Shown: piece after piece, positions 18,726-64,000 of the stretch
Position numbering within the stretch: position 1 is the stretch's first letter
Layout of the letters: the number at the start of each line of letters is the position of its first letter
Source: Amoebophrya sp. A120
Lineage: Eukaryota > Protista > Dinoflagellata
Direction: 5' to 3'
Length of the DNA stretch: 64,000 nucleotides
Assembly: GCA_905178155.1 (NCBI GenBank)
Contig: CAJINV010000019.1
Location: forward strand, 1,248,493 to 1,312,492
Notes under the pieces: model-generated
Told to the model about the DNA's origin: nothing
Seen by the model: only the letters and a program-made list of their open reading frames with translations
The model's database searches: none
Made by a program: the position numbers and the translations under genes

Positions 18726-21700
18726 ATGGACGAGGCCAGCAAGCTTTCCCCGGGGAAGACGGAGTCCACCGCGGTGCCCTCTCCCTCGACGAAGGGCGGC
18801 TCCCCCGAAAAGGCTTCGGAAGAAGAAGTGCGGGCAAGGCTGTTCAAGGTACAAAGAGTTTTTTTTTTATCCCAGTAGCATGCTTGCCAAATAACAAAGA
18901 AATAAGGTTGTTGATCAATTGTCGCTTCTAAGTAAACTGATGACTCGTCAATCGTGGATTCTCTGCATCGTTGGATATTAATTAAGAATTTTAGACTTGA
19001 TCATGAAAAAAACACCAGGGCCTCGGACGCGACCTCCTTTTGTCGATCAAAGAAGGCTATCGAATGCAAATATTTTCGTTTTGGTTTTGGGTCTGCCAGA
19101 AACCCGTAAAAGTAGTAATTTGAATAAAAGTTAACCCACTTGCACGACCCCCGCACGACACGCTGCAGGTTTTTTTTTTGTAGCCGATATTATACGATGC
19201 AGCTCCACTCCTGCGCGGTCACTAGGCATGAATAGATTTTATCGGAGCCGGGGTTGTCATCTCAAAGCCCAGCTGCTGAACACTACATATTGATCTCGTC
19301 TCGACCCAGAAGATCGACGTGTATTTGCAATCCATAAGGGCGACATGCACAAGGCGCAAGGGCTATCCTGAGTAAAAACGTACCCACACCATAGTCAAGA
19401 TGGGGAATCGGCTAGACAAATCCACAAGTTTTGGCTGTTTTGCATGACAAATTTGGATTCGTAGTGTAGTGCTGTTTGAGCTAGCTCAGCAGCATCACAG
19501 ATCTAGCATACCATGCTGATTGGAGCATGACAAATTGCAAAACACGACTAGAAAATGCTTCTCATGGGGCTCCGCATGAGAAACGTTTTCAGGATGCAGA
19601 TTTGCATGACAACTCTGGTGTGGGTACGTTTTTACTCAGGATAAGGGCTGATCATGGGCGGTGTGGAACTGGATGCCCGGGAGCCGGTGACCGGGCGTAT
19701 CAAATGCAAAAATGTCTGGGTCTGGGAGGATGGAACTTGTGATGCTGTCTGTAGATTCCAAAAAAGTCTGTATTGCATGACCAGCAAAAGGAGTCCACAT
19801 TGTCCTACGCGGAGAGGGCATCTCTCATGCGGAATACGCACCAGAAAGCCCTCTCAAAATCAGTGATGCTAGGCCATGCATTACAGGCATGATGCGTCAT
19901 GCAAAATATGCATCACAAACCTCGCACTCTTCCAGACCCCGACATATTTGCATTTGATAGAGCGCACCGCTTTGCATCTCGCCGTGCAGATATCAGGGGA
20001 AAAACAAGTTTTGTTTCAGTGCAACAACGTGACTGATCGACATCAAAGCGCCGTCTACATCAAAACCCATAGAAGAAGCAGATCCGCGGCCATTTTTTCT
20101 GTCAGAATCTTCACGTTTAACAAACACAAACTTCTAGGGTAGAATATGTGCTGTCGTGCTTTCTATGATCTGCGAGAAAGCACAGAATTAAAGTTGTAAG
20201 GTCTTGCACTGAGTAGAACATGCTTGTTTTTCTGTCGATACCAAAAGACCGCCATGGGGGTCGTGAAGCTGCTCGTGCAACACAAGATTGACGTGAACGC
20301 GGTGGACCGCATCGGTGAGGTCACAGCCCTGCACGTCGCTGCGCACCGCTATGCCAAAGAAAAAAGCTAGCCTAGCAGTATGATCGTTTGATTTGGGAAG
20401 CAAAACAAAGCGATATAGGCCGTGTGAAATTTTTAAACTCTGTCATGGGCCGCGAGCTGTCTAGGGCATTGCAGTGTTCTTGGAACTGGGCAGGAGAAAA
20501 TGACACAAGCTTTTTTTTGCAGCAAGTGCAAGTGATGTTTTCGCATGACAAATTCGACATGTGCAGTCGGCTATGCATGACAAATTCGAGATGCTAGCTT
20601 CAATTTTCTGTTGGATAATTAAGGGCAGATGGTGATGCTGAAGCACTTGCTGGCCGCGAAGGCGAATTTGAACCTGGTCGGCGTGGAGGGCGACACTCCG
20701 TTGTCGCGGGCGGTATGACAGTGCACAACTCCCCCGCGTTCCCATTTGTCATGCAGAATACCAAATCCACGCTTTCCCTCCTGTCACTATGATGCATGAC
20801 AAGTTCTGCTAGCCCAAATAGCACTACAATCCAGCTCAAATTTGTCATGCAAAACCAGCATTCTTGCTGATGCTTGTATAACCGTTCATGCTATAGAAAT
20901 GAGGGGGAGGGGTAGTTGTGCACTGTCATAGGCGGCTACGCAGGGCCACTTAAAGGTGCTCGACTCGCTTATCTCTAATGGGGCCATCTGCGACCTGAAG
21001 CAGCGGCAAAGCATCAACGAGTGGCAGCAGGCCGAGATCGAGATGAAGCAGCTGGCCCTCCAGCAAAGCACGACGGCCTCGGGGTCGCAGCGCGGGCGGA
21101 GCCCCATATGATGGTGAACAACTCGCTCCCACTTGTTCTTCCCTTGACTTGAATAAACGCATAATGTCTACTTGCAGCAACAGAAGCAACGCCATCGCCA
21201 AAAAACAAGTATAGCTTCTGCATGACATTCACAATATCGAACGAATTCTGACAGTGATTCATTAATCACAGTTCAATATTCGGGAGGTTCATCCTGGTCC
21301 GAAATTTGTTTATGTCGGCAGTGTTTATTTCTGCAGGCGAGAAACCGGATTTGGTACTTCTGTTGCATTTACATTTGAGCGGAAATTGAAATTGTAGTAG
21401 GGCAAGATGTTTACTGTCATACTCCACGCGCAGTATGCAGGGCCATGGCGACCGCGCTTTCCAACCCGCAGTTCGGGACCGCCGGGAGCCGGTGTCTGCG
21501 CTAGTGAATATGGATTGCAAAAATATCTGGGTCTGGAAACTTGTGATGCTAAAATGTGGATGATGGAAACACACCCGAATGCAACCCAGCATGACAACTT
21601 TCCAAGACGCTTTCCCATAGGCAATCCGCATGAGGAACTGCGTTTTTGCATGTACAAAAGAGGCTCCGACTTTTGTTGGTTATGCAATACAGATTTTCTA

Positions 21701-22865
21701 GGTATGGAAAGCTAGCATTACAAGTTCCACCCTTCCAGACCCAGACATTTTTGCAATCCATAGTGAAGGCCGTGAAGCGAAACTGCGGCATTCCGGTGGT
21801 TAAAACGCTGCTAGAGATATCCAACGAGAAAAAACTGTGTTCGTGCCACTTGCTTGATACAATGGACGAAAAGCATGACAAATTCACTCTGCGTGACAGA
21901 CTTGAAGACGTGTCATGCCTTGCCAGCACGTGCATTTGAAAAGGAAACAAACACTCAGCTCGGAAAAATCAATAGGTGCGCAAGTACCTAATCACCTGAG
22001 AACGGCCCTGGCCTCGCATGAGAACAAATCTAACTGTCTTGCATGGGGTCGTGCAACTACTTACACGACGAGCTTACACTAAACAGAGTTTTTTCCCCTG
22101 GACAGGACATCGGGTGCGACTCCAATCGGACGGATGAAAAGATGAACCGACCACTCCACGTTGCGGCCCACTACGGAAACGCGAACACGTGCCGGCTCTT
22201 GCTCCATGCGAAGGCTGCGGTGAACGTCGGTAACCACCTGGGCCGCACGCCCCTGCACTTCGCGGCGCGTTCTGGCCACGCCCGAATCTTCCGCATGTTG
22301 CTCGACTACAAGGCCGAAATTAACGCCGAGGACCGCTTTGGGCAGACGCCACTCACCCTGTGCTGCGACACGATGATGTATCCACAGTAATTTTCAATTT
22401 GCATCACTACACTGTGACAAATTTTTGCACTTTTGCATAAAGAGAAAGTTCACCTCCTGCCAGCACTACTCAAGTACTTTCATCCTACAACTCAGCACTT
22501 AACATTTAGAAGCACTGCAGGGTTTTGATGAAGATGTTATGTTCATCTTTCGGAAGCAGAAGTTCTAGTACATGCACCGTGCACTGACTTGTCCTTGTGT
22601 GGTAAATTTGTACTTGCATAAGACGCAGAAGCTGGTGAAGGACAACGGTGGTACCCCCGGATACTCCGACGAACACAACGATGTTTCGCCACCGGTTTCG
22701 CCCGCGCGGTCCCTGTCCCCCGCACGGAGCCCGAGCCCGGACACCGCGCCGCGATTCAACCCGGCCGGCGCCAGTGCCGGCAGCCAACCCGGCTCCCCCG
22801 CCACAAAACGGTCCCAGGCCAACAAGTTGCAGGGCTCCCCGGCCTTCTTCCAAGAGCGACACTAG
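18726..22865 (+). CDS. Ankyrin repeat protein (~421 aa); 1 canonical intron (18849-19018) and 10 introners
   Basis: Splicing out each element plus 5 nt gives a 1266-nt open frame with ankyrin motifs GRTALHLAVQ, VTALHVAAHRG, GDTPLSRAATQGH, RPLHVAAHYGN, GRTPLHFAARSGH and GQTPL. Confidence 0.9.
19058..19336. mobile_element. Introner, degenerate family A
   Basis: tatcgaatgcaaatat...gtatttgcaatccata; DR aaggc/agggc; frame restored. Confidence 0.8.
19364..19643. mobile_element. Introner family B
   Basis: TIR tatcctgagtaaaaacgtacccacacca; DR agggc/agggc. Confidence 0.95.
19698..19959. mobile_element. Introner family A
   Basis: TIR tatcaaatgcaaaaatgtctgggtctgg; DR gggcg/gagcg. Confidence 0.95.
19991..20240. 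mobile_element. Introner, singleton, diverged
   Basis: tatcaggggaaaaacaag...cttgtttttctgtcgata; DR gcaga/ccaaa; frame restored. Confidence 0.8.
20350..20617. mobile_element. Introner, singleton, diverged
   Basis: tatgccaaagaaaaaagctagc...gctagcttcaattttctgttggata; DR decayed (accgc/attaa), but removing element plus 5 nt restores ankyrin HVAAHRG. Confidence 0.7.
20714..20930. mobile_element. Introner family C
   Basis: TIR tatgacagtgcacaact; DR ggcgg/ggcgg. Confidence 0.95.
21107..21421. mobile_element. Introner, family C-like, diverged
   Basis: tatgatggtgaaca...tgtttactgtcata; DR cccca/ctcca. Confidence 0.8.
21509..21762. mobile_element. Introner family A
   Basis: tatggattgcaaaaatatctgggtctgg...ccagacccagacatttttgcaatccata; DR gtgaa/gtgaa. 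Confidence 0.95.
21818..22104. mobile_element. Introner, singleton, diverged
   Basis: tatccaacgagaaaaaactgtgtt...aacagagttttttcccctggaca; DR agaga/ggaca. Confidence 0.75.
22379..22620. mobile_element. Introner, strongly diverged
   Basis: tatccacagtaattt...aaatttgtacttgcata; DR tgatg/agacg; frame restored. Confidence 0.65.
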
Positions 22866-22989
22866 TGGCGAAGGGTTGTCGACATATGATAAAAAGGGAA
22901 AAGTTTTTGTTTGGGTAGAACGATCAGCATGTATACGCAAAACATGAAACAAATCCTAAGCTGCCAAGTGTATCCAACATTCGCATATA

Positions 22990-24210: not shown

Positions 24211-27200
24211 ATGAGGCACCAGCACGACCACAAGAAAAGGTTCACTTACGTCAGACTTCTTCACCTCCCAGAGACCAAGCTCGCGATGCCCTGCCGCCTC
24301 ATGCACCGGAACGTCCCGACTTTCCGGAAAGAAGTGAGAAAGGTACTGCTAGTACCGCAGAAAAAATTTCATTTCTCGACCCGCGTCCTCGTTTTCCTTT
24401 CCGCCCTGAGCCTCTTGCTTTTTGTTTTTTCAGCCCGCGGACAAGAGGTTAACAAAGCAAGTGCAAGAGATGAACCTGCAAAAGCTGGAACTGCTGGGGT
24501 CCGCGAACTACTTGTGTCAGACGCTCATCAACGACCACCTGAGCACGCTTCTAGCGGCCGCGCACTCTCCACCACCTTCGCAGAAAACGAGGTACATTTT
24601 AAGTATCAAGCGGCTGATAGTGTGGGGGAAGTTTATCCTGAGTAAAAACGTACCCACACCAGAGTCAGGATGGGGATTTTGCAACACAAACCTAGGAGTT
24701 TTGTGAGTCACGCATGACAAGTTGCACTCTGCAGTGTAGTGCAGGTTAGCAAGTGCAGCCGCGTCACAGATTCATCTGCTCATCCTGTTCACAGCATCAC
24801 AAATTCCAAAACACGATTGAAAATGGCTCTCATGCGGATGCGCATTACAAGTCTTCCTGTCTTTGCAAATCTGCATTACAACTCTGGCGTGGCTACGTTT
24901 TTCCTCAGGATAAAGTTTATTGGTGCCTCAGCTGCGGGATGTACCGGATCACTGGTGCGAAGAAGCACAGAAGTGATAGTACGGAGAGGGAGAACAAAGT
25001 TTACGGAAAAACAAACACAAAAACCGCGGTTTCCGTCGTGCTGCATGCAAAGGAGAGGAAAATTTTTACCATGTTCCACGCGGAACGGGCCTCTGAAGGC
25101 GTTGGAGACCAACATCACGAGGACAACGTCTTCGGGAAAGCCGAAGACCGCGCGTCCGTACGCCAGTGCCTGTGGTACCCCTTTCCCGGCGGGGGTGCGG
25201 CGGGGGAACGAGGTGAACAGGAGAAGGATGAGTTTGTTTCTTCGTCATCAGCATCACAAACAGTGCTTGGCGCGGAAAAGAAAGCGCTGAGAGAGATCCA
25301 ACAGAACCTTGTGAGAGCTTGGGATAAAGAAAGCAAGGACAAAGCTGGAGCTGCTTCCGGTACTAGTAGTGCATCAGACGTCGTCGACTTCGAAGCAGAT
25401 GAGCCTAGAAATTCCCTCGTCCTTCCCTGGGTGCGCGGGAAGGAAATTCGAATAGAAACAACACGACCGCCGGATAGTGGGGAGGAAGCGCCGTCATATT
25501 TCTCCTTCGCCAACTCCGCTGCATTGACGCAACCGCAAGGAAGTAGAAATCAGAGGAACAAAGAGCTTCTGACCACGAAGAAAATCACGATTTTGAAGCG
25601 AACCAAGAGAACGAATTCATCTGCAGCAGGAGACAACAGCTCACGTACTACAGGGTCCTCTACTACACCAGCAGCTCCAGCTGCAGGAGATCAACATGAT
25701 AATAAGCTTACAGAGTCCTCTACTTCTACTCCGCCTTCCTTCTACACTGCGACGGAGTACCAATCCGTTTTCGACGAGAACGAGAACTACTCGCCGCCCT
25801 TCCTGCCAAAACTCGATCCCCGGAACATTTTTGACAGTGACTGCGAGCGGTACTCGGAGCTTTTGCACGGGGAAATCCTGGCGCATTTCGGCTTGAGTGG
25901 ATTGGGCAGCGACAGGTCACTCGCACTGCTGGACTTGGTGGCCGCTTTTGATAGTGCAGCTGGTGATGTCCTCGACGGCCGTGGTGGTGGTGGGTCAACA
26001 CCATCTTCTGCCAGTGAAAAGGTAAATATCTTCCAGCCAGAAGTACTGGCAGCGGCTGGGCTGGCGCTGCCGGGCGAACTGGCCGTCGTGCTGCAGGATC
26101 CGGATATCAAATGTAAAAATGTCTGGGTCTGGAAGATTGCCAGGTTTGTCATGCATATTCTGAATGACCCTGACCCATGATGTCTGTGATGCATGCCCTA
26201 GCGTCACAGATTTTTAGAGGACTTTGCGATGCCTCTACCGCATGAGAGAAGCCCTCCCCGTGTAGCACAAACTGGAGTCCTTTTGCTAGGCATGCAATAG
26301 AGATTTTTTTGGAATCGAAAGACAGCGTCACAGGTTACCACCTTCCAGACCCAGACATTTTCACATTTGATACCAAAAATGCCGGCACAATTTCTCCCAT
26401 TAAATTTCGCCGCGGGTCAGAACTTCAGCATGCGCTTCGATTACGAATCAGAAGAGATTCTGCTCGGGACGATGAACCGAAAAGGGGATAATTATTTACC
26501 GGATGTCGCCAATCATCCAGTTCCAGCGGGAGGATTTGATGAAAACGTAGTTCTTGAGAAGAAAGTATCCAAGGGCGAATTGCTGGCGGTCAACAAGTAC
26601 AGCGTTCCGCGGTCTTCAAGAACGACGCCGCCTTCGGATTCTCACGACGGAACAGAAGAAGTCAAGGGCTCGCCACAACAACTTTTCCGGCGCGTGAAGC
26701 TGAACGTCCAGTATTCCCCCATCAAGACTCTGACACTACTACTCACGGAAGAGGGCGAGGTTTTCACGAACCTTGCGACGAAATTGGACGACATCGACCC
26801 GGTGTCCGGGAAAAACGCCGGCCAGACGGACAATGTTTGCGCGGAGACGAGTAGTAGAACTACGGATGAATATGATCAACAGTATGATGGCAGCATCAAT
26901 CAAGGAGCTTTGTCGGACGACGAGGACGACGAGGAAAGCAGTCTTTTCTTCCACCATGCAATTGCTGGAGCCGCAGGGTTATATCCTATGGGGCAAGGCG
27001 GGACCGGTGCAGCTGCTCTATCTCTTGAAAACCAGCAGAGCCTATGGAAGTTTTGGGGCACGCAAACCGTGGACGACCTGGAGTGCGTCGGGTTTGAAGC
27101 CCATCTCTCCCGGAAGAGAAAACTGATTCTGTTTTTCGAGAAAGATGTCCTTGTCCAGATTGAGGTGCGGATTAGTGGGTCTACAGGACCACAAACGGGA

Positions 27201-30200
27201 GCAGGAGCGGCGGATGGAAGGGCCAAGATTTTGAGAACGCGGGTCAAGAATTTTAGGATTTCAACATCACTACCTGCTTTTGCAGAAAACCGAGATGAAC
27301 AAGCGCCAAAAAGAACTCCTGTGCAATTTTCTTCATCCTTCCAGCTTCCCGAGTCCGAGTTTCAGCCGAAAGAAGAGTGGGGCTGCCGCAACTTCGAGCA
27401 GGAGGAGCGGGTTTTCAAGTCCCAAAACCTCCCTATGGAACTGTCAGGATTGAAATTGACAAAGTTGAAAAATTTGTGATGCATAAAACCGATACCAGTG
27501 GGAAGCCCAATTTCTAAGCGGTGCATGACAAATTTCGACGTCATCGAATTCCAGCTTCTCATGCTGTTTGGCGAAAGAAGGTATCCTTTGTCATTCTACT
27601 TTAGCAGCTCTATCCCAAACCCGAAACAGGCTCACAGTCGACCTCTCTTGCAATCCCTGCAAGAGAGTCACTTCGTGCCTTGCATTTCATGCATCACAGA
27701 TTAATATTTCAACTTTGTCGATTTCAATCTTGACACACCCATACTCCCCCTGCCCGCGGAGCACTCCTACCAAAGTGTGATACTGGCGAAGAGTGCACGG
27801 CTGAAATCTTTAGCGTTCCAGGACTTGGAGAAAGCCGTGGGGGACGGCGGGGGAAGAAGAGGTGGAAGCGACGATCCGAGTAGAAATGATGGCGATCCAC
27901 CCGACCATGCGAGGAGGACAGCATCATCATCGTCGTCTGACTCTCTCCTTGCAGGAGCCTTCAACTTCGAAAAGGCGCTTTTTGCGCTGCCCGGAGAGGT
28001 CGAGAAACTGACGAGGGTCCCGCTACCGCTATGAATTGCAAATATGTAGTCTGGGTCTGGTAACTTGTCATGGTAAATCTGAAGCATACAAAAATCTGTG
28101 TTGCATGAGTGCCAAAAGCTGTCCACTTTCGACCAAGTTCTGAGGCAGTTTCTCGCGCAGGATAGGCATGGTGGAGACCTCGCAGAGTCTGTCATGCTAA
28201 GTCCCGCATTCCAGACCTCAGCGGTCATGGAAAACCTGCATGACAAGTTGACACTCTTCCAGACCCAGACATATTTGCATTTGATAACCGCCCCAATTGA
28301 ACGAGATCCAGCACCTCGAATTTGACTACTCCGCGATAACGCACTCGCAAAAGGCACTGTCCCCCCGGTTCGTGAAATCGCACGGGCATTTCTTCATGAA
28401 CGTGCCGAACGGGCTATCACAATGAAAAACGCCCCCACCCCCGAACTTGGGAGCATTTGTATTGCAAACCTTTCCAACAGAAACACTCGCCCTCTTGCAT
28501 CTAGCAGCATCACAGATTTCCAATCGTGAATAGCGAAAGTTTGTATTGCAACAGATCCCAGCAAGAGTGGCGCTTGTCATGCAAGCAATGCTATATACGC
28601 TTACGCTTACGCCTAGACTCTGCATCACAAAGATTCATATTCCTTTCATGCGTGACAAAAAGTTTTCATTCGGAAACTTCGCATCAAAAATTATTGCAAC
28701 TTTGGGGGTGGGGGCATTTTTCACGGTAATACGGGCAGATGGCGTTAACTGCGAAGTCGGACACGGTTTTGTCGGAAAAACTTGGCTATCCTGTGCAAAA
28801 GTATCGTAGTCGTACTAATTGCAAATATGCATGACAAATCTCCTTCCTAAGGTAAAACAGCACTACAAATTCCACTTTTCTTATTGCTAAAATTAGTGAT
28901 GCAATTTATACTAGTACGATACTTTTGCAATGCATATTGGCAAAGTCGACGCAACCTTCCTTGTCACAAACTACACCAACACCGGGCAACAGGAAATCGT
29001 GTCGAATGTCGCTTGGTCTTCAGGAGCTGCAGATGGAAGTAGAAGCAGTAGCACCAGCACAGCAGGAGCTTCACCTTCAACTACAAAGACCAAAACCGCG
29101 GAGTGTGTCGTGGAAAGTTTACCCAGCCCGAGCTCTGCGGACATCGCGGATTTACGGCGGCAGGCGTCGTTTCGGGAGACGTTTGTCAAGGCCGTTGCAC
29201 TGGTCGATCCCGCAAATGGTGCGGTCCGCGAGTGCAATTTGTTCTCTTTACAGATTGGGAAGGGGAGGATTCTGCACCTGTTTGTCGATGAGAAGGATCC
29301 GACAATTGTACGGAAAATCATGCTGTTCCGCGGGCGACACCCCGACCAAGCGTTTTCCACGGTGGTTTTCCGGAATTGGAGAGTAGCTAGGCGGGAAAAT
29401 GATGAAAGTGCAAATGCGCCCTCCGAGGAACTGCATAACGTGAAGTTTCTCCACCCGTCCCCGAGTTGGCACTGCCACAAGGTGGATACGAGTCAAGTAG
29501 GAGGAGAAGTAGAAGGCAGTGGGAGTGGCCCGGTGGAACTGGCATCAACATCCGAAGAAAATAAGCTTTCTCGCGAAGTAGATGATCACATCAAGATCCC
29601 ACTGCACCACCGGTCCAGCGCTTTCAAAGACAGTCTGTTCGCGTTTTCCGGTGCTCTGGGGCAGTACCACTTGCTCGCGATTTATCACAGGAAAAAAGTG
29701 TTACAGTTACACATTTGTTGGAGTTTCTGCATCACAAAGTTGCTCGACATGGCAAAGAAAACCTGTGATGCGCAGACTATAAAGGAAAACACGTATGAAG
29801 TGAGGTTGGCAAGCATCTCCTGCATGACAGAGGTTGTCTGTCTTGCTTGTCTCCCATCAGAGTGTGTAACTGTAACACTTTTTTCTCACGATACGATTCC
29901 GCTTTTGTCCTTACCGGGGGAGCTGGATCTGCTCGTGAACAAAGACCGGGCGTTTGGACTCGACGCTGTGCGGGACTTATCCTTCTTCCATTTCGAATTT
30001 GCGGCGAGGAAGTACGATGGAGGAGGAGCGTCCTCGTTCGGAGCAGGATCTGGCGCCTCTTCCACCGCTTTATTTTCCAGAGAACCAGAACCACCAGGCA
30101 GAGGCATTGGTTCGCTCTTTCCGCTCTACCGCGGCCGACTGGCGGTGAATTTCGCGCGGAGGCTGTTCTACTTGACCGCACACAGCCGAGGTGCTGGTGG

Positions 30201-48751: not shown

Positions 48752-49296
48752 AGAAAAATGTTGTGAAACGGACGACCACGGGGCTCTTGTCTAGCAGAGG
48801 CTGCTTCCAGTAGAAACTGGATGAGTGCAAATGAATTTTGGTTCTCCCACAGCATGATGTGAAAAGACCACATTGTGAAAGATCGCAATTCAGGTAGATG
48901 CTGATTTCTCAAGCGGTTCCGGAAATACACTATGGCAGAGGATGAAAGATATGTTCGGGGTGTGGGTTGGATACGAACAAGCGCGGTGCTACGGTGTCTG
49001 CCCAACAGCGCACTATCGTTGCGTCTGAGCGATTTGAGTGGGTGCACTGGTAGAGCAGAAGAGCAGCAAGAGAGTGTAAGGAATGCAGCGACGTGAAGAC
49101 GAGACTGAGAGTGTGTTTGAGACGAGAGTGATGAATGCAACAGAACGTGCGAAGTAGAGTTTGGTCTCGTCTTGTCGTAGTAAAAAATGCGAAAAAAATG
49201 AAAATTATGTAGCGCAACAAGAGCAATGGCTTGTTGCCACGACCGTTTCATCTCGCTACATCAACTTTTGTGGCCACCTGCGTCGCCGTCCTCTGG

Positions 49297-52200: not shown

Positions 52201-55200
52201 GAATGAAACACAGAACTATTTGTGTTGCCACACCTGCAAGACCTCGACTCTCTAGCGTTGTTTTCCCTTTGGAAGCGCGCATGGCAAATTTTCTGTGTCA
52301 TGTGTAACAAACTTGTGATGCAGATCTTGCAAGATCATCACAGTGAAACAGCTTTTTCGTGGGATAAGTCCGTTACCCGCGTAAATTCGGCGAACGGTCA
52401 TTGGGAGGCGTACAACGCGGAAGACCAGATTTGGGTAGACAAGGGGGAATCGTGGTACGCGCCGAGTCCGGGGTACAACTGCATGTTGTTACTCTCCTGG
52501 GTCCCGTTTTGGCTGTTCCTTTCCTGGTACTGCGCACACGTGTTTTCCGCCGGGGAAGGGAAGTCGTTGCCGTACTTTTTTCTCTTCTCGAAGTCCTATT
52601 GGTTTGGCGTGGACCACAAGAAGCTGCAGGAGCAGATTGCGGTCGATGACACGATCGGGAAACTGCAGTTAGAATCGAAGCAAACGAGCGGGATCCACTG
52701 TTTGAAGCTCGCCAAAGCGTACCAGCTGCAAACGGCCTTAAGGGAATTGACAATCGAGATGAAACGGAACGAGATTACGTGTTTACTGGGGCACAACGGC
52801 GCGGGGAAATCCACGTTGATCAACTTGTTAACCGGATTGCACCCCCCGACCCACGGCCACGCGTTCTTCGACGGATTATCAATCGTGGATGAGATCGCGA
52901 CGATCCAAAGGAAAATGGGGATCTGCCCCCAGGACCATATATTTTTCAGTGATTTAACCGGGAGACAGCACCTGAAATTCTGGATGATTTTTCGCGGGTA
53001 TCAAGAGAAGAAGGATCCTCTACTTCGTGATGCTGTAGTTGCCAAAGAAGAAGATACCGTCGCCGAAAAGGAGGGCGAAATCATCGGCAAAGAGAAGGAC
53101 AAGAAGAACGGGGGCACAAGATCAAGACAGAACACTATGGACGAAGAAGTCGAGAGGCTTTTGAAGGCGGTAAACCTCGATTGGGCGGCTGAGAAGTTAG
53201 TGAAGAACTACAGTGGCGGGATGCAGCGGAGACTTTGCGTCGCAATCGCCTCCATCGGGAATTCCACGGAGGTGATTTTCCTTGACGAACCTACCACTGG
53301 GTTAGACCCGGTGTCGAGACGGCAAATTTGGGATTTTATCCAGGAATTGAAGCGGGATAGAGTCGTGGTTTTAACCACCCACAGCATGGAGGAAGCCGAT
53401 TGTTTGGCCGATCAAATCGGGATTCTGTCCCAGGGGAGGCTGAAGTGTCTAGGGACGAGTCTTGCGTTGAAAAACAAGTACGGGTCAGGGTTTCGGTTGA
53501 CATTTTCGTTAGACTTGACGAAAGGTTCGGCCCGGGAAGTGCGGAAGTTCGTGACGGAGAGACTTCCCGGCGCGAAGGTTTTGGTGTCTGCCGGGACTAA
53601 TTTGACGATGGGGGTTATCCCACGAAAAAACTGTTTCACTGTGATGGTTTTGCAAGATCTGCATCACAAGTTTGTCACACATGACACAGAAAATTTGCCA
53701 TGCGCGTTTCCCAAGGGAAAATACGCTTGAAAATCCAATGTCTTGCAGGTGTAGCAAGACAAATAGTTCTGTGTTCCATTTTCTGCATTACAAGTTCACA
53801 GTGAGAAAATTTTTTTTTGCGATAGGGGTCCCACGGTCGTTGACTTCCATCATGCCGGACTTTCTGCACGCGATCGAGGAATTGGTCAAGGACAAAGAGA
53901 ATTCCATCATCATCGAACACGGGATTTCCAACTCCACTTTAGAAGAGGTGTTCATGAACATCACGCAAACGGTATCCTGAGTAAAAACGTACCCACACCA
54001 TAGTTGTCATGCAACTCTGCATGCTTAAAATGCTTCTCATGCGGAGCCCCATGAGAAGCATTTTCTAATGCGGTTTTGAAATTTGTCATGCTCCAATCAG
54101 CACGAGATACTAGATCTGTAATGCTGCTAAACTAGCTCAAACAGCACTACACTACGCGGACAAACTTGTCATGCCAAACAGCCAAAGCTGGCTGATTTGT
54201 CTAGCAGATTCCCCATCCTGACTCTGGTGTGGGTACGTTTTTACTCAGGATAGACGGAAACACCGAGCAATTTGTTCATCAACAACCAAGACGACGGGTT
54301 CGGGCAGGCGAAAATCTGCGTGTTGTGCTGCGCCAACGAAGCCATCGCGGTGACTGCGTTTACGAAGGAGGGGGTGCCGTTTTTGGTTGACGGGGTGATT
54401 TGCCGGTCTTGTGCCGAGGGGCTGCACGACCCGGAGAAGGTCAAGAAAGGGTTGATGAAGGCAGTACCGAATAACAGCTCGTTGCGAGGGCTCTTAGGAG
54501 GTGGATCAGCTTCGGGGACGAGTGGCAAGGCGGGTGATGCTGGGTTCTACAGTTTAGACGAACACGAAGGGCAAGAAAAAAATATTAAAACCGGTGAAGA
54601 ACAAACCGCTGGCGCGGAAACGAGCGGCGGAGGCGTTTTAACGGAAACGCAAATCGTACCGGATAATTACAACGTTTCTTCTGGTGTCGCCACGGAAGGC
54701 GCGCACAGTGCAAGTCGTTTTGAGGAGGCCGGGGAACATCAAGAGGTGTTTGTGACGCACGTTTGTGCCGCTGGTAGTGATCATGGGGACAATAGTTGCA
54801 ATTTCTATCGGGCACCTGTTGCAGTGTCGAAGGAGGTCGCTGGTGTCTTGTCGCGCAGAATCATCACAATGGAGCTGGCAGGGAGGAGTTGCAGATGCGC
54901 GACGACACCTCGCTCAGGCAACAACAGTCAAAACGGGTCAGTCACACCAGCCTTAGGGGTTTTCCGATCTTCTGAAAGAAGCTCCTGCTCTGAAGATGTT
55001 GAGAAATCTCCGACTTCTGCCTTGAGTCATCATGGAGTGCAACTCGACATTGCGGACGATTTTTCGTGGCTATCAGGAGACGAAGAGGAGCAAACGCCTG
55101 GCACTTCTTCCGCGTGGTCATACCGGCGGACGAAGGCGGCAAGAAGTACTTCTAGAACAAACTGCTCTACCAACAAGATTCAAATCGCCGAAACAACAAG

Positions 55201-58200
55201 CCCTTTCCACGACGACCTGAGAGAAGGGTCCCATCAAATGCAGCAACAGCAAGTCCAGCCTCCCGGTGGCGCGTTTCTGATGACAACCCCGACCGGGGAC
55301 CCACTTCTGAACGCCAGTGGCCAGCAGATTGTGGTGGACATGTACGGGAGACCCATTGATAAGGACGGAAACGTGATCGGGCCCAGCATCGTCCCTAACG
55401 CGCCACAACCGCCGGGGGGTGGTGGAGGTGGAAGTGTGGCCGCGCAGTCTGGCATGCAGCAACCCGCCGCGCAACCGGGAACAGCTTCGCAGCCGGCGTT
55501 TCAGACCCAGCAGTCGATGCAAGTTCCGGGAAGTACTATGGGGTTCAATCAGCAGCCCCACAACAAGAATTTTCCACAAACTTCCACCCAACATCAACTC
55601 TCCGGAACGGCGAAACCTTCTGATACGGCAACCTCCAACCTCCACCTCTACTTCCAGCAGTCCCTCGCGATTCTCCTCAAAAACGCGCAAATCCAGGCAA
55701 AGCAAAGGTACAGCAACTGTGCGCGGTTGTGCTGCGTGTTCTGCTGCACGTGTTGCGGTATTATTGTTGGGCTGTTACTTGCCGGCGCGATGACCGCGGC
55801 CGCTTCTACGAATCTTTTGCTCACCGAGTTTGATTTGGAGGAGAACAACGAGAACCGCGCAATCCCTTTGTCCGTCGCCGGGTACAATGGGCAGATCGAG
55901 CGGGAGTTAAATCTCCGCACCGGGACCCCAATCTACGGCCCAACGTCCGACATCCGACTCCCAACCGACCGCGACAAGATCTACATTGCGAATCGCACGG
56001 CGGACATTGATGCGGAGCCGGACATTTACTTTCGCTACCATTTCCGGGAGTTGAAGAAGAACTTGCTCATGAAATCCGTTGATTTACGGTTTCAAGACAT
56101 TGGGGCTGCGCAGACGAAGGTGAATTTCATATCCTGAGTAAAAATGTACCCACACCAGAGTCAAGATGGGAAATCCGCTAGACAAATCCGTAAGCTTTGG
56201 CTGTTTCGCATGACAAATTTGGACGCGTAGTGCAGTGCTGTTTGAGCTAGCTAAGCAGCATTACAGATCTAGTATCTCATGCTGATTGGCGCATTACAGA
56301 TTTCCAAATCGCATTAGAAAATGCTTCTCATGGGGCTCCGCATGAGAAACATTTTAAGCATGCAGAGTAGCATGACAACTATGGTGTGGGTACGTTTTTA
56401 CACAGGATATTTCAACTCCGTTGAACAGTTCCCCATGTACATGCTGTACCAGATATTACAGTGAAAAATGCCCCCATCCCGGAATTTGCAGAAGTTTGTC
56501 ATGCAAAGTTTCCAAACGAAAGCTTTTTGTCTTGCATCAAAGGATTGCGAGCGTTTCTGATGCAGAATGTGGGTGCGCAAGGTGCCTTGTGCATAACAGA
56601 CCCGGCTGCTGTTGGGCTGCTTCGCAACACAAATTTGACCTATTCAGCATGGAAATTCTGTGATGCTGAGATATGCAAGACGGGGAGTGTTTCCGTTGGA
56701 AAGGTTTGCAATACAAATGCTGCCAAGCTGGGGGTCGGGGCGTTTTTCATTGTAATACCAGATTGGGGAAGAACACGTGGCGAGTCTAGCAAGTATCAAT
56801 GCCGACAACACGCATCCACAGTTGCTGAAACGAACAGTTTATCCTGTGCAAAAGTACTACTGCTCGTACTAATTGCACGAGATATGCATGTTAAATCCAA
56901 CTTTCTACCTCAAATAGCATGACAAATTGAATTTTATTCTTGGGAAAATTTGTAATGCGTTTTATACTAGTGCGATACTTTTGCAATGCATACAGTTCCT
57001 TCCAGTTCAGATTTTGTCAACCTGTACACGACGAAAATTCCTTTGCTGGAGAAGTTCGGGTACCAGTTGAACTATATCAAATGCAAGTATGTCTGGGTCG
57101 GGAAGGATCCGAACTTGCGATGCGCATTTTCGAACACAGAAAAATCTCTCATGCATAGGTAGCAAAAGCTGCCCACTTTCTGTCACCAAAATAGGAGATT
57201 TCTCATGCGGGTTCGGCATTGCGGAAGCTTATCGAAAACTGTGATGCTAGAGCTTCCATGCCAGACCTTCTCTGTCATGCAAAAAGAGCATGACTCTTCC
57301 AGACCCAGATACTTTTACATTTGATAAACTACTGTCCGGCGCAGAATTTCCGGTTTTCGCACATCAACCCGAAAACCGATTTGGACGAGGAGAAGATGTG
57401 GAAGACGGTTCTGCTATCCTATGTAAAAACGTACCCACACCAGAGTTGTAATGCAGATTTGCAACGACAAAGACATTTGTGATGCGCATCCCCATGAGAG
57501 TCATTTCCAATCGTGTTTTGGAATTTGCGATGCTGTGAACAGGATCAGCAGTTCGATTTGTGATGCGGCTCTCCTTGCTAACTTGCACTACCTTACGGAC
57601 TGAAACTTGTCACGCGTGACTCCCAAAGCTCCTAGGTTTGTGTTGCAAAGTCCCCATCTTGACTCTGGTGTGGGTACGTTTTTACTCAGGATATCTGCTC
57701 GAATCCTACGGGGTGGACGAATCGCACTTGTACTACCACGGACCTTTATCTACCATCACGCATTCCAAGGCGCGGTTCCGGAATGAGGAAGCCGGGCGCG
57801 GTGTTCCCGGAGCCATCTGGGACTCGGGCTACGAGTACCACAATTTGTGCGGTTTGCAGACGCGAAGTTGCCAGTTTTCGAATTTTTCCTTCTCGAACAA
57901 TTACACGATTTCCGTGCCGGAGGGGTATGCAAGAAAAAAACTGTGTAAGTGTAAGCCTGTGATGCAGGAAATGCAAAAGTGTATCCGCTTGTCATGCTGG
58001 ATGTGCGTCATAGGCAACTTTCATGCGTGTTTCCACGTGCTAGCTGCGCATGACAGGTTTTTCCTGTAATGCAAAACGAACTTGTTTTTCATATTCATTT
58101 CCTACAAAGTTGCACTTACGCATTTTTTTTTCCTGGATAAGGGGCTATACGCAAGCAGTGCGTCGGTATCGGCTACGACTGACAACTCGTTTTTCAAAAC

Positions 58201-61200
58201 ATACACGCCAGTATGCGGAGGTGCCGGAAGTAGTTCATCTTCGGGGGGTGATTCGACAAGTCCTGTTCCGACAGTCATCCCGCAGCTGGGGAATTTGAAA
58301 TCCTGGCGGAAACGCTGGCAGTCGAGAAATCAAGTGTTACTAATGGAAAGGTACTCTGCTCAGGAGAGGAAGGAGATCTTGCAAATTTTGAACACCTTCT
58401 GCGGGGGCGCCATGCCGACGAGCGTAGTCCCATCGGGGGGCACCGCGGCGACGGCGGCGCAGAGTGAACAGTGCAGGAAGTTGGCGGAGAAGTACGCGAC
58501 GGTGAACTTGTGGTGGGAGAAAGGGACGAGTGGTGGAGGGGCAGGGATTACATCGTCGTCGTCTTCCTCAAATAAAGATTTCGACCTGTCCTGGCTTGGG
58601 ATTGCGGTGCAGAATGAAAATGGTATCACCGTGCAGCAGGACGGCAATACCAATACCTCTTACTGGTCGAATCAAGCGCGGTACACGACCATGGGGATCT
58701 CACTCTCCAATGTCGGCGATTTTTCGCAGGTAGATCCAGAGCTGCTGCAAACCACGCCTAGTACGGGGCAAGAAATAAACAAACCTCCTCTCACCGGCCT
58801 CCAGGGAAAATTCCAATACGCACAGAAGCTCTACCGCCTGCAGGCGCAGCCCGTATCAACTGCAAAAAAGTGTCTGGGCGGTCTGGAAGATTGCAACTTG
58901 TCATGCTTTTTGGGACACTAAAGAAATCTGTATTGCATGACCAGCATCAAGAAGGGTCCAGTTTGTGCTACACGGACAGGTCATTTCTCATGCGGAAGGT
59001 GCATCAGGAAGCCCTCTAAAAGTCTGTGATGCTAGGACATGCATTACAGGCATCATGGATCTTCTCCCAGACCCAGACATATTTGCAATGCATATCCCGA
59101 AACGAGTAACAAATGCTTGAAAACCTCCGACCCGGCGTCGCCCATCTACGGGCAAAACACCGACGTCGTGGCCTATGACGGCAACGAGGGATCGGCCCGG
59201 CGGGGCGGGCAAGGCGCGCGGCAGGAGTTCATCCGAATGGGCAACCCGCGATGGCACGGGTACGGGGATAAGCCCGATTACGTGTATTTGGAAAACTTCA
59301 CAGCGATGCCGTACGTGGGGGCGGAACAAGAAGAAAACAACAACTCATCTTCAATCGCAAGCACCTACGCGGCGGCGGCGGCGAACATCACGGGCCTTTT
59401 TTCCGACAAGCCCTTTCCCGACGTGGCGCTCACGGTCAACAAAGCGGACAAAGTCCAGGGCCAACTCGACGTGACCTTACACATCGCCGCGCGGGATTCC
59501 GCTTCGGACATAGCGCTCTTCCGGCGGAACATCGAAAACGCGCGGTGGAGCGAGCCGGACCCGGGTTACATTCCCTTCCTCTTATGGATTGTAAAAATGT
59601 CTGGGTCCTCTGGAAGGTTGGAACTTGTGATGCTAACTTTCCATACCTAGAAAATCTGTATTGCGTAACCAACAAAAGTCGCAGCCTCTTTTATCATGCA
59701 AAAACGCAGTTTCTTATGCGGATTGCCTATGAGAAAGCGTTTTGGGAAGTTGTCATGCCGGACTGCATTCGGAAGTGTTTTCATCATGCACATTTTAGCA
59801 TCACAAGTTTCCAGACCCAGACACTTTTACATTTGGCACCTCTCCTTCCTCGACGACTACACGGCGCAAGACTCTTTATACGACTACGTCTACGCCATGT
59901 TTGCCTGGTCTTCGGATGCGTTGTATCAAAGTGTGAAAAATCCCCCCACCCCATATCGAAACGGAAACTTCTGTTGCTGGATTTGTGTACACAAATCAAC
60001 CCTGTCTTGCAGTGAGGCACTACAAGCAACGCCTCAGCCTGCGTAGGGGTGTTTGGTTGTAGGCACTTAGCATGACAGAGGCCTGCAATGTACGTGAAAC
60101 AGCATTACAAATCGCCTCCATAAGGCTGCGAATTCTTTGGATTTGCCTTCTTGCAAGAGAGACAGGATTTGTGGTCACAAATCGACATCACAAATTTTTA
60201 GGCACATACGTCTTCAATATGGGGAGGGGGGATTTTTCCTCTCAATACGTTGCGAGCGGCGATTTCGGATCCGGCGGACAAAGTTTCCGGCAGCTGCCTA
60301 TGACCCGCTCAGACGTTACAATCTCAACTGTTACAATAGAATCTGGATTTTGTGATGCAAGAGGTGCATTATCTACCCAACTCGCATAGGTTTGCGCATG
60401 ACAAGTTCTGGAGTGCCAAACCGCACTAGAATCTTCCGAAATTTGTATTGCGAAAAGCGCAAAAATACTCTGCACGTTCCTCATGCTCTTCATGCAACAC
60501 AAATTCCAGATTCTATTGTAACGTTTGAGATTGTAACACCTGAGCAGGCTATACTGCCAGTTAGATTTTTTGACCCCCACGTCAGTGATGCAGGTTCACA
60601 CGCTGGTTTCCGCGTTTGCGAACGGGATAAGACTGAACCTCGGCTTTCCCCCCGTCGAGTCGGATGTTCTGTCCCATTTGCCGTATTTATTCTTCAGTAG
60701 CCAGGAAGTCTTATCCCCCGACGCCGGGATGCAGACGCTGGCCTTGCCGATTCTCTCCTTACTGTGGTTCCCGGTGATCACAACAAGCTTCGGGTACGAA
60801 AAAAGATTCGGGCTACTGGAGATGATGCGGATCCAAAGTTTATCCACGACGATCTACTGGCTAACCAACTACGTCTGGTTCTTCATTCTGTACTTCTCCA
60901 TCATCGGCTCCTACCTAGCTTTGTTCTACGCCGTCGCCTCCGACAACTACGATATTGGCCAGCTTTTCTTCATCCACTTTCTCTGGGGCCACTGCCAGAT
61001 CGGGCTGTCTCTACTGTGCGCCGCAGCGTTCTACAAATCGGAGTCTTTGACCGCGGTGACGTACTTCTGGATGTCCATCGCCTACCTGTCCGCCGGCCCT
61101 TTGCTAGAAGCCGCAACGATCGACGGCGGCCCGATGCCGTGGGCCCTGATTGTGTGGGGACCGACGAATTACGGCAGGAGTTTGGTGCTGGCGTTAAAGT

Positions 61201-64000
61201 ACAAGGAAACGGACAGTTCGAAATCGATGGATTTGTGGGAAAAGTTCACGGCGAGCGAAGAACAAGAGTACGGGGAACTGCTGCTAGTCCAATTCTTGGT
61301 CGGGAGTTTGGTCTTACTCGTCGCGATTCTCTGGCTCCAGGGGGTACACGTGGTCGTGTTTGAAAAGATCCGGCGGTTTGTGATGGAGAATATCGTGGAC
61401 CGGTGGATGGGGAACATCAAAGGGGAAAAGAGTGTGAAATCAGCTGCTGATAAAAAAGAACAAAATGAAAATCCATCCGCAGAAACTACAGAAGTTCCTG
61501 CGCAAGAAGAGCATCCTCAACCAGCAATCACAATTCAAGAACGCATTTCGTCTAAAGAAACCCCGATATTACAATGAAAAATGCCCCCACCCCCGAATCG
61601 TTGGGAGCATTTGTATTGCAAACCTTTCCAAATGAAACATTCGCCCTCTTGCATCTATCAGCATCACAGCTTTCCAATCGTGAATAGCAAAAATTTGTAT
61701 TGCAAAGGACCCCAGCAAGAGCGGCGCTTGTCATGCAAGCGAGGCGATACACGCCTAGACTCTGCATCAGACAAATTCATACACCTTTCATGCATGACAA
61801 AAAGTTCTCAGTTGGAAACTTCGCATCACAAATTTTCGCATCGTTGGGGGTGGGGGCATTTTTCACTGTAATACCCGACGAAAGAAGTTCTGGCGAATCT
61901 CTCGGCGGACCAGAAAATCGATTCCGATGTGCGGGTATCAAATGCAGAAATGTCTGGGTCTGGAAGGATCCGAACTTGTGATGCGCATTTTAGAACACAG
62001 AAAAATCTCTCATGCATAGGCAGCAAAAGCTGCCCACTTTCTGTCGCCAAAATGGGGGACTTGTCATGCGGATTCGGCATTGCGGAAGCTTCTCGAAAAC
62101 TGTGATGCTACAGCTTCCATGCCAGACCTTCTGTGTCATGCAAAAACAGCGTGACTTATTTTCCAGACCCAGACATTTTTACATTTGATAGCGGGAGGAA
62201 GCCGAGCGGATTCTGAAGTCCGATATCGCCGCAATGAGGCTCGCCGCGAACGACAGTTTTGAGGAAGATGACAGCAATGTGCTTTATTCCGATGCTGCTG
62301 CTGACCCCTCGACATCGAAAGCAAGAGTCGATGCGATTCAATTGCGAAACATCTACAAGCAGTACCCGGACGGGAAAAAAGCGGTAAATGGGGTCTCGTT
62401 CGGCGTGAAGAAAGGCGAGTGCTTCGGCCTGCTCGGCCCGAACGGCGCGGGCAAAACGTCGTGCATCAACCTCGTGTGCGGGCTGCAGAAATTGTCGAAG
62501 GGCTCGATTGTGGTGTCTGGGTACGAAATTTCCGCGGCGAGAACGAGGAAAAGCTCTACTTCACAAGGCGATTTTTTAAACGGCTTGCAAAGTAGAACTT
62601 CCGGCGACGCGTCCCTTTCCCAACTGTCACAGTACCTTGGTGTTTGTCCGCAATTTGACTGTGTTTGGAACGATCTCACGGTCGAGGAACATCTCGCTTT
62701 GTACGCAAGGATCAAGGGCATTTCGGGGTACAAACAGAAAGTCTTGGTGCGCAACGTCGCGGAATCTGTCGCGTTGGAGGGGGACGCTTTCAGAAAACTT
62801 GCTTCCGAACTTTCCGGGGGCATGCGGCGGAGATTGTCCCTCGCAATTTCGTTGGTCACGAACCCCGCCGTTCTGATCCTCGATGAACCCACCACCGGCC
62901 TAGACCCGGACACCCGCGCGGGCTTGTGGCAGGTGATTGCGAATGAGTCGAAGAAGCGGGCGGTGGTCTTGACGACACACAGTATGGAGGAAGCGGACGC
63001 ACTGTGTGAGAGGATTGGGATTATGTGCAGCGGAAAATTGAAGTGTGTGGGAACCCCTTTGCACTTGAAGAACAAATTTGGGAACGTATCCTATTTAAAA
63101 ACGTCCTCCTCCCCACCCCATTATAGTTGTCATGCAGATTTGCATCTACAGAAAAATCTGTAATGGACCCCCAGGATCAGGTAGACGAGGTCCCAGACCG
63201 AAGTGGTAGGCGCTTAGGGTGAACTATGTATGTAGCGCTTAGGGCCCTTCCGTACGGCCAATTTGTATGCCCGCAACGGGGTTCGCCTAAGTCGGTCATT
63301 TGTATGCAAGGCGTTGGGTTACCCGGTCGGCAGAGCCGATCCACAACGAAGGAACATTCGCAAGAGGAAGGGCGGAATTTGTATTCGTGTTCTGGGATGT
63401 GTAATGCTGTAAACAGGATGAGCAGGCTTCTTTGTGATGCGGCTGTCCTTGCTAAACAGCACTACAATACAGATGGAAACTTGTCATGCATAACTTCCAA
63501 AACTTGGAGACTTGTGTTGCAGATTTACCAACTTGGCGATGGGGTGGGGACGTTTTTACTCAGGATAGATCGGGTACATGCTCACAATCGCTTTGAACTA
63601 CGCGTCGAGTGAGCAAATGTCGCTGCTTATCAAGTGTAAAAATGTCTGGGTCTGGAAGATTCTGAGACTTGTCATGCATGTTTTGCATTGGCCAGGATGT
63701 CTGTGATGCATGCCCTAGCATCACAGATTTTTTGAGGGCTTCGCGATGCCTACTCCGCATGACAAATGTCCTCTCCGCGTAGCAAAAATTGCATTCTCTT
63801 TGCTGCTCATGCAATACAGATTTTTTTGGAATCCAAATTCAGCATCACAAGTTGCATTCTTCCAGACCCAGACACTTTTACATTTGATACTGCTGAAGCA
63901 GAAGGAGGTTCAACAGAACAGAATCTTGGCGTTCCTGAAGAACCAGTGCAAGCTGTCGACGGTTTTCCCGATCGAGAGTCGGGGGGTGTTACTGCAGTTT
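49297..64000 (+). CDS. Full-size ABCA-family ABC transporter, running off the window end; 21 introners and no canonical introns seen
   Basis: Two TMD-NBD halves. First half: IVREKRNGTLKLMRVMGL, GHNGAGKST, YSGGMQRRL, FLDEPTTGLDP, TTHSMEEAD, STLEEVF. Second half: YEKRFGLLEMMRIQSL, GPNGAGKT, LSGGMRRRL, ILDEPTTGLDP. The frame is continuous after removing each element plus 5 nt. The start could be 49297 or 49357. Confidence 0.93.
50689..50999. mobile_element. Introner family G
   Basis: tatggatgtgtcaggtttgaaatcgtcaaagttgaaa...tttcaactttgacgatttcaaacctgacgcttccata; DR cgctg/cgctg. Confidence 0.95.
51125..51270. mobile_element. Introner family E
   Basis: Family E TIR; DR cctgc/cctgc. Confidence 0.93.
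51328..51606. mobile_element. Introner family B
   Basis: Family B TIR; DR gtggg/gtgga. Confidence 0.95.
51839..52107. mobile_element. Introner family A
   Basis: Family A TIR; DR tccgg/tccgc. Confidence 0.93.
52158..52366. mobile_element. Introner family H
   Basis: tatcgcaagaagaaactgtatcactgtga...tcacagtgaaacagctttttcgtgggata; DR cgtct/agtcc. Confidence 0.92.
53616..53824. mobile_element. Introner family H (reverse complement of 52158)
   Basis: tatcccacgaaaaaactgtttcactgtga...ttttgcgata; DR ggggt/ggggt. Confidence 0.95.
53973..54252. mobile_element. Introner family B (opposite orientation to 19364/56130)
   Basis: Family B TIR; DR aacgg/gacgg. Confidence 0.95.
56130..56409. mobile_element. 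Introner family B
   Basis: Family B TIR; DR tttca/tttca. Confidence 0.95.
56454..56757. mobile_element. Introner family D (opposite orientation to 28415/61567)
   Basis: tattacagtgaaaaatgccccc...ggggcgtttttcattgtaata; DR ccaga/ccaga. Confidence 0.95.
56840..56992. mobile_element. Introner family E
   Basis: Family E TIR; DR cagtt/cagtt. Confidence 0.95.
57075..57326. mobile_element. Introner family A
   Basis: Family A TIR; DR aacta/aacta. Confidence 0.95.
57415..57693. mobile_element. Introner family B (opposite orientation to 24634)
   Basis: Family B TIR; DR tctgc/tctgc. Confidence 0.95.
57926..58139. mobile_element. Introner, singleton
   Basis: tatgcaagaaaaaaactgtgtaagtg...cacttacgcattttttttcctggata-like end; DR agggg/agggg. 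Confidence 0.92.
58854..59094. mobile_element. Introner family A (similar to 19698)
   Basis: Family A TIR; DR gcccg/tcccg. Confidence 0.93.
59583..59838. mobile_element. Introner family A (opposite orientation to 21509)
   Basis: Family A TIR with 3' end mutated to ...tttggca; DR cctct/cctct. Confidence 0.92.
59924..60247. mobile_element. Introner family F
   Basis: Family F TIR; DR cgttg/cgttg. Confidence 0.95.
60299..60553. mobile_element. Introner, singleton with long TIR
   Basis: tatgacccgctcagacgttacaatctcaactgttacaatagaatctgg...ccagattctattgtaacgtttgagattgtaacacctgagcaggctata; DR ctgcc/ctgcc. Confidence 0.95.
61567..61873. mobile_element. Introner family D
   Basis: Family D TIR; DR cccga/cccga. 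Confidence 0.95.
61936..62190. mobile_element. Introner family A
   Basis: Family A TIR; DR gcggg/gcggg. Confidence 0.95.
63087..63567. mobile_element. Introner family B carrying a ~200-bp internal insertion
   Basis: Family B TIR; DR gaacg/gatcg; 481 bp versus ~280 bp for most other B copies. Confidence 0.9.
63628..63889. mobile_element. Introner family A (similar to 26105)
   Basis: Family A TIR; DR ctgct/ctgct. Confidence 0.95.

Follow-up and report, generated by a model that had tools for sequence, protein, structure and literature searches.

Inverted-repeat elements that duplicate five target bases and are skipped with five extra nucleotides in genes of Amoebophrya sp. A120

How do genes remain readable when they are interrupted by dozens of transposon-like elements that lack GT-AG ends? 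This question is raised by a 64,000-nt stretch of the dinoflagellate Amoebophrya sp. A120 (contig CAJINV010000019.1, positions 1,248,493 to 1,312,492; here the window, numbered from its first letter), in which seven genes carry 46 short elements that begin with TAT and mostly end with ATA. We found that these elements duplicate five base pairs of their target on insertion, and that five of them are skipped at the RNA level as exactly the element plus five nucleotides. We lean towards reading them as non-autonomous terminal inverted repeat (TIR) transposons that are probably removed by a modified, hairpin-guided spliceosome, with the cuts likely falling 1 nt upstream and 4 nt downstream of the element.

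Element anatomy and removal at the RNA level

Searching for TAT..ATA pairs that have both inverted and direct repeats, and then profiling the element ends, yielded the 46 elements, which lie within 19058-63889. They ranged from 146 to 481 nt (n = 46), and in their short length, lack of coding capacity and TIRs they corresponded to miniature inverted-repeat transposable elements (MITEs). TAT was found at the start of all 46 and ATA at the end of 44, the other two ending in ACA (21818) and GCA (59583). The flanking 5-bp direct repeat was perfect in 32 elements and carried one to four mismatches in the other 14. These mismatches were present at all five repeat positions, with the worst case at 20350 (4/5). 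In the seed set used for the terminal profile, TAT was present at 80/80 ends and A occupied positions 11-13 in 68-73 of 80. The termini were paired in the folds of 37 elements (median z -7.4). A detector that ignored the direct repeat recovered 33/46 elements in the window compared to 0 in each of five shuffles. All 46 were located in coding sequence, at a density of ~1.9 per kb of exon in the seven genes, and none in the 7.8 kb between genes (P ~3e-6 if placement were uniform).

The elements were grouped into eight multi-copy clusters (families A to H), one cluster with relatives only elsewhere (family I), and six singletons. Families occurred in both orientations within the host genes (family A, 6+/3- in the window). 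A family B element at 63087-63567 contained ~200 extra internal bases and could be a less-deleted derivative of a parent transposon. When junctions were drawn at exact length, GT-AG was readable at 0/46 elements and GC-AG at 2/46 (20714 and 39254), so that canonical U2-type donors and acceptors were lacking. A preliminary description made from the sequence had listed 46 elements in at least eight families, with the same counts of ends and repeats and with GC-AG at only a few, such as these two. All of this was borne out, with one start corrected to 22379.

Four sequencing runs were compared over 44001-64000 only, X1 and X5 among them. X5 appeared DNA-like, with an even depth of 22-56 outside the elements and a summed depth of more than 13,000 on 14 element-bearing bins, as befits families that are repeated across the genome. 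X1 had zero depth over the intergenic region 44668-46001, where the depth of X5 was 22-27. In X1 record 1, a jump from 47638 to 47859 removed 220 nt (215+5). Between 53610 and 54254, record 2 has 144 letters; between 61561 and 62191, record 5 has 57. Each figure is exactly what two removals of element plus five would leave. Four more elements had X1 piece boundaries that fit, with pieces restarting at 59096 (element 58854) and 60554 (60299) and stopping at 59577 (59583) and 63084 (63087, left repeat copy through position 3). Elements with mismatched repeats were still skipped, 53973 as judged by length and 58854 and 63087 by boundary.

At the five measurable elements, the elements are removed at the RNA level as element plus five, with no other letters; the length relation proposed in the preliminary description was exact in each of the three records. 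The extra length is fixed at five because of the X1 contigs, since the reading frame alone gives it only modulo 3. Some points weigh against this reading. X1 was classed as RNA by a guess together with its depth and junction pattern rather than by its record, and its junctions were seen at 9/46 elements, among the eight pieces listed. The raw-read runs X9 and X10 yielded just 8 and 4 partial reads, respectively, and do not represent the locus.

The skips could also arise if the elements were excised from DNA in a transcribed stage, as in ciliate-type elimination, so that RNA copies element-free DNA. Transposon-type ends and the exact loss of one target-site copy would suit such excision; only 15 of 1209 joints were listed, and contigs drop rare variants. 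However, the long X5 contigs listed all ran into elements and kept them. X1 also contained element-derived contigs, as expected of unspliced RNA, and a mosaic joint taking positions 1-4 from the left copy and position 5 from the right fits a fixed RNA cut. We consider excision from DNA very unlikely.

Host genes and reading frames

Removal of each element plus five nucleotides yielded stop-free frames of 1266, 6030, 3333, 870, 1362, and 2349 nt, along with 3038-3039 open codons in an ABCA-type transporter gene. Removal of the element without the extra 5 nt left many stops. For an open frame, one further ordinary GT-AG intron had to be removed from the ankyrin-repeat gene and three from the HAD-like gene, and all four of these introns begin with GTA (GTAT or GTAC). 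The earlier claim that excising the element with one repeat copy opens all seven genes holds given these four introns, which it had omitted. In a Pfam search of single exons, ABC_tran, ABC2_membrane_3, ADH_N/ADH_zinc_N, and Abhydrolase were matched, and the first HAD exon had no match. Pfam thus confirms the ABC and MDR labels, while the motifs of the ankyrin and HAD genes were read by eye, and we take these two labels as presumptive.

The ABCA protein was compared with a homologue, P0001, to which 1673/3039 residues were identical. From this comparison, 13/21 junctions aligned gap-free within 6 residues, and an extra length of +5 scored best at 15/21 junctions against +2 or +8 (2 ties, 4 lower). 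These alignments bear on whether ordinary splicing acts at cryptic GT-AG sites near the elements, or whether the genes are pseudogenes. Most elements do have in-frame GT..AG pairs no more than ~20 nt from their ends, with one shifted case at element+5 length and the rest at other lengths. The five measured X1 junctions contradict this explanation, and the use of cryptic sites, named in the preliminary description as a refuting outcome, was not seen at them. The gap-free ABCA junctions and the frames open across all 46 elements also speak against it, and we give this explanation almost no credence.

The seven genes and their elements are described below in order, with families in brackets and direct repeats perfect unless the left and right copies are given. 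All seven lie on the + strand (window 18726-64000), an arrangement that has been described in Amoebophrya as blocks of co-oriented genes. The gene labelled by eye as ankyrin-repeat (18726..22865, 1266 nt spliced) carries ten elements and the GT-AG intron 18849-19018. Its elements are 19058..19336 (singleton, AAGGC/AGGGC), 19364..19643 (B), 19698..19959 (A, GGGCG/GAGCG), 19991..20240 (singleton, GCAGA/CCAAA), 20350..20617 (singleton, ACCGC/ATTAA), 20714..20930 (C), 21107..21421 (singleton, CCCCA/CTCCA), 21509..21762 (A), 21818..22104 (singleton, AGAGA/GGACA), and 22379..22620 (singleton with a decayed hairpin, TGATG/AGACG).

A large gene of no assigned function (24211..32593, 6030 nt spliced), with an orthologue in the metagenome locus L065, contains nine elements at 24634..24912 (B), 26105..26372 (A, CCGGA/CCAAA), 27434..27743 (D), 28030..28286 (A), 28415..28731 (E), 28787..28936 (F), 29683..29893 (G), 30624..30879 (B), and 31606..31865 (distant A). 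A further gene of no assigned function (33411..37400, 3333 nt spliced), with an orthologue in locus L047, has two, 34069..34452 (H) and 35106..35368 (A). Two elements, 39254..39518 and 39846..40097 (both A), are present in the gene labelled by eye as a HAD-like phosphatase (38666..40509, 870 nt spliced), together with three GT-AG introns (38958-39092, 39577-39749, and 40153-40291). The zinc alcohol dehydrogenase (MDR) gene, identified by Pfam (42318..43936), has one element at 43176..43427 (A), and its spliced length is 1362 nt, or 1539 nt when counted from an upstream in-frame ATG at 42141. The alpha/beta hydrolase gene, also identified by Pfam (46183..48751, 2349 nt spliced), has one at 47644..47858 (C).

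The ABCA-type transporter gene, identified by Pfam and P0001 (49213..64000, continuing past the window end), carries 21 elements. These were found at 50689..50999 (D), 51125..51270 (F), 51328..51606 (B, GTGGG/GTGGA), 51839..52107 (A, TCCGG/TCCGC), 52158..52366 (G, CGTCT/AGTCC), 53616..53824 (G), 53973..54252 (B, AACGG/GACGG), 56130..56409 (B, 92% identical to 53973 and in the opposite orientation), 56454..56757 (E), 56840..56992 (F), 57075..57326 (A), 57415..57693 (B), 57926..58139 (G), 58854..59094 (A, GCCCG/TCCCG), 59583..59838 (A), 59924..60247 (H), 60299..60553 (I, with relatives only in metagenome loci), 61567..61873 (E), 61936..62190 (A), 63087..63567 (B, long form of 481 nt, GAACG/GATCG), and 63628..63889 (A).

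Outside these genes, element sequence in 1-18700 was limited to decayed remnants (3395-3432, 4345-4374, and 16684-16741). A 1212-codon open frame at 12907-16545 had no element and no Pfam match, in contrast to the element density of the seven genes. A GC-rich island at 44200-45900 (63% in 44001-46000) contained overlapping open frames on both strands, likewise with no Pfam match; it had single-copy depth in X5 and zero X1 depth over 44668-46001. The open reading frames for which Pfam gave no match were 12907-16542, 35376-37397 (in the last exon of the 33411..37400 gene), 44383-45528, and 44028-45038 on the minus strand. A protein search with the exon 51614-51838 also returned no match.

Target-site duplication and mobilisation

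A TIR pattern search of one metagenome assembly returned 158 loci (481 kb) with the same families at identities of up to 97%; the loci were selected by the family A pattern, so family sizes among them are biased. The same pattern had 0 matches in viral contigs. In these loci, 316 elements were detected without using the direct repeat, and 122/316 could be oriented. An exact 5-bp repeat was found in 234/316, compared to at most 1/316 at lengths of 4, 6, 7, 8, or 9. The flanking frames implied an extra length of 2 mod 3 in 20/21 callable elements (137 examined). No sequence preference was noted at the target sites of the loci elements, and family A was evenly oriented among them (13+/13-).

Two loci were orthologous to parts of the window at 93-96% identity, L065 to 29205-33926 and L047 to 34898-38783. 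Three L065 elements occupy sites where the window has the 5-mer just once, and two window elements, 30624..30879 and 31606..31865, are absent from L065, where the sites are empty. The element at 35106..35368 is common to the window and L047 at 94%. From the five filled and empty site pairs between the window and L065, the 5-bp repeat is therefore a target-site duplication: the elements duplicate 5 bp of target on insertion.

Three further observations were made on insertion sites. At 29683-29893, the window and L065 (4340-4545) carry elements at the same site with the same CGATT repeat and no mutual blastn match. Each has relatives elsewhere at 87-89%, and the flanking exons are ~93% identical. 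The two elements must either have been inserted in parallel or reflect the replacement of one by another in place. Replacement of P elements is an analogue of the latter. Near 30624, the two populations carry different elements whose insertion points differ by only four bases (L065 ~3334-3590), hinting at insertion hot spots. The first repeat base fell at the third codon position in 71/122 oriented elements of the loci (L001-L158), which may reflect a genuine preference for one codon phase or a by-product of orienting by a codon model.

We also noted a shared internal motif. TTTGTSATGC and its close variants were present as 157 copies in 43/46 elements compared to 3 in 24.6 kb of exon, with the motif derived from the same window elements in which the copies were counted. 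The motif is common to unrelated families, and in the loci its positions peak at 33-34, 41-45, 64-65, and 72-77 nt from the ends. The resulting offsets (~10 and 31 bases) would suit recognition by a DNA-binding protein. One shared transposase behind the motif sites would be the simplest reading, and a single integrase-like transposase (IS3EU/Ginger-type) might move all families by binding them. An A120 family with integrase-like open reading frames inside its TIRs is reported among the rows covered of PMC12130899. Speaking against a transposase, no transposase or autonomous element was found among five long TAT..ATA pairs in the 158 loci (481 kb) and the window, and the sections covered of Farhat et al. 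(PMC7789003) describe no transposase in A120 and reject transposase mobilisation. The density of the motif in the loci elements (15.6 per kb vs 2.4) was not used: two motif hits had been a condition of detecting these elements, which makes the comparison circular. Separately, the GT-AG introns 38958-39092 and 39577-39749 begin with GTATGA and carry two copies of the internal motif each, with no inverted repeat remaining; possibly they are old introners turned canonical.

Cut position, candidate machinery and known systems

The position of the cut can be read only at mismatched repeats because perfect repeats hide it. X1 has the base of the left copy at position 1 in 53973 and 58854 and at position 3 in 63087. 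By sequence, the frame at 20350 is open only with a cut at most 2 nt before TAT, and at the L065 element four bases from 30624 the window's Arg-Gln codons are kept only if positions 3-4 come from the left copy. In the P0001 comparison, the homologue residue agreed with the left copy for 52158, at position 1, and with the right copy for 51328, at position 5, where it is Ile rather than Val. On balance, the intron probably consists of the last base of the left repeat, the element, and the first four bases of the right repeat. Such a 1+4 cut would therefore give a 5' end of N-T-A-T, like the GTAT and GTAC starts of the four local ordinary introns. This agrees with Table S4 of PMC7789003, which lists, for A120 in the part covered, only NT 5' dinucleotides as predominant, although the table may reflect aligner preferences.

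In the preliminary description, the two direct-repeat copies were thought to guide the joint, with the cut falling anywhere within the repeat. The frequency of perfect repeats (32/46 in the window, 234/316 in the loci) and a removal length that always equals the element plus one repeat would agree with this. However, the empty sites indicate that perfect repeats are the plain product of insertion, 14/46 repeats are mismatched (one at 4/5) and mismatched elements are skipped in X1, and all informative sites fit one fixed cut. Guidance by the repeats thus appears very improbable. An AT drift marking the right copy as intronic was seen in the window, was not replicated in 22 mismatched oriented loci elements, and was set aside.

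The favoured reading, to which we incline with limited assurance, combines non-autonomous TIR transposons, a 5-bp duplication, the skip of element plus five, the likely 1+4 cut, and probably a hairpin-guided modified spliceosome. A transposon inserts into coding sequence, duplicating 5 bp; its TIR stem would hold both intron ends together; and a modified spliceosome would use the hairpin in place of GT-AG, cutting at fixed distances from the stem. At the 5' end, N-U-A-U may retain the local GUA(U/C) donor at +2 to +4 while leaving +1 unconstrained, and the 3' site may be set by distance from the stem (four bases past) rather than by sequence, both as judged from few sites. According to the parts of PMC7789003 covered, nearly all spliceosomal proteins are present in A120 along with U2, U4, U5, and U6, and U1 was not found.

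Several results count against this combination. The call for position 5 depends on a single, conservative V/I difference, and that for position 4 comes from one site. Nine of the 46 elements fold without paired termini, including 20350 and 22379. Among 163 oriented elements, G before TAT was not enriched (57 vs 57 in a symmetric control), nor was AG at the predicted 3' end (12/163), leaving no sign of selection toward spliceosomal dinucleotides. The terminal conservation of the 5' and 3' ends was not significantly asymmetric in the stricter set (1 vs 4 changes, p = 0.375, n = 106), and one element began with TTT; a stronger 5' TA conservation in the looser set (0 vs 6 changes at position 1) was lost there and was not used. 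The preliminary description had called the system distinct from ordinary spliceosomal signals. This stands for the 3' end, which has no AG, and is doubtful for the 5' end, given N-T-A-T and the GTA donors.

The same elements and geometry could be handled without a spliceosome, by a structure-specific endonuclease and an RNA ligase, as suspected for euglenids. The absence of GT-AG and of selection toward it, orientation independence, and strong terminal stems are in keeping with such enzymes. So are the U1 result for A120 (PMC7789003, in part) and the euglenid introns, which in the sections covered of PMC11282704 form stems with unpaired overhangs and full-length circles without lariats. Against them, the likely N-TAT 5' end matches the local GTA donor, the two GTATGA-start GT-AG introns with the internal motif hint at conversion between classes, and transposon-derived non-canonical introns of Fritillaria are reported there to be handled by the spliceosome. 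We regard a nuclease and ligase as a credible but less probable explanation than the modified spliceosome. More tentatively still, and on the whole doubtfully, any TAT..ATA hairpin might be excised from RNA blind to sequence, one base before and four after the stem, without spliceosomal two-step chemistry. If so, nearly every MITE insertion of one transposase's families would be harmless in either orientation, and elements could be swapped in place at occupied sites.

The introner system itself is already known and has been published for A120 (PMC7789003). The window elements show its features, namely the inverted-repeat motif, a 5-nt repeat, families, and non-canonical RNA removal (five measured and four boundary-matched). 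The link drawn in the preliminary description to the introners of Farhat et al. 2021 was sound: in section 11 the A120 inverted repeat opens with TAT, followed by seven variable positions and a run of A, and the parts covered give direct repeats 3-5 nt long (5 bp for the example of the Fig. S19 legend) and non-canonical junctions supported by RNA-seq. A size of ~240 nt and co-oriented genes are likewise shared. The paper calls repeats and splice positions variable, whereas the window elements have one repeat length and likely a fixed 1+4 cut; in the parts covered it has no cross-family motif, compared to the shared subterminal motif, empty sites and both orientations here. Other Amoebophrya use GT-AG, by the same partial account. 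Gozashti et al. 2025 (PMC12130899) report 58 A120 families, mostly unclassified TIR elements in the 19 rows covered. They are likewise TIR elements, 150-340 bp long; their annotated splice sites are mixed and some have 5-bp target-site duplications (TSDs), but they show TSDs of 2 to 5 and family-dependent 'co-opt/carry' classes with no single rule in those rows. In the literature searched, including the main text of PMC7789003, we found no mention of a single 5-bp rule supported by empty sites, the likely 1+4 cut, function in either orientation, the shared subterminal motif, or the swap at one site; figures S19-S25 and 39/58 A120 rows of PMC12130899 lie outside this scope and may hold some of them.

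These features have practical consequences. The likely fixed geometry N-TAT...ATA-NNNN, the independence from repeats and orientation, and the shared motif make the mechanisms of splicing and mobilisation directly testable, and the element+5 rule fixes gene prediction in these genomes. If the spliceosome carries out the removal, the elements would show how far RNA structure can replace recognition of the 5' G and 3' AG, with U1 not found; if not, they would place another chemistry of mRNA splicing in eukaryotes alongside that of euglenids.

Systems in other eukaryotes were compared through the sections covered of each source. IS3EU/GingerRoot elements (PMC10045372) also have TA..TA termini and TIRs and belong to an integrase-related DDE transposase family, but their TSD is usually 6 bp, compared to 0/316 at 6 bp and 234 at 5 bp here, so that they serve as a lead only. 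Introners of Micromonas and Aureococcus (PMC9860276) are likewise non-autonomous DNA transposons turned intron that leave the mRNA unchanged; they carry canonical splice sites or co-opt them from the TSD, unlike the window elements. Introns of Fritillaria borealis (PMC11282704) are similarly MITE-derived, with TIRs, TSDs and species-specific positions, and are reported to be removed by the spliceosome. They recur as AG-AC/AG-AT, whereas here position +1 and the last four bases are target-site letters. The nonconventional introns of euglenids (PMC11282704) also have an end-joining TIR stem, TSD-like repeats, no GT-AG, and a probable MITE origin. Their stem core is CAG/CTG at +4..6/-8..-6 with pyrimidine|purine junctions, compared to TAT/ATA and likely one and four unpaired bases here, and circles were shown for the euglenid introns.

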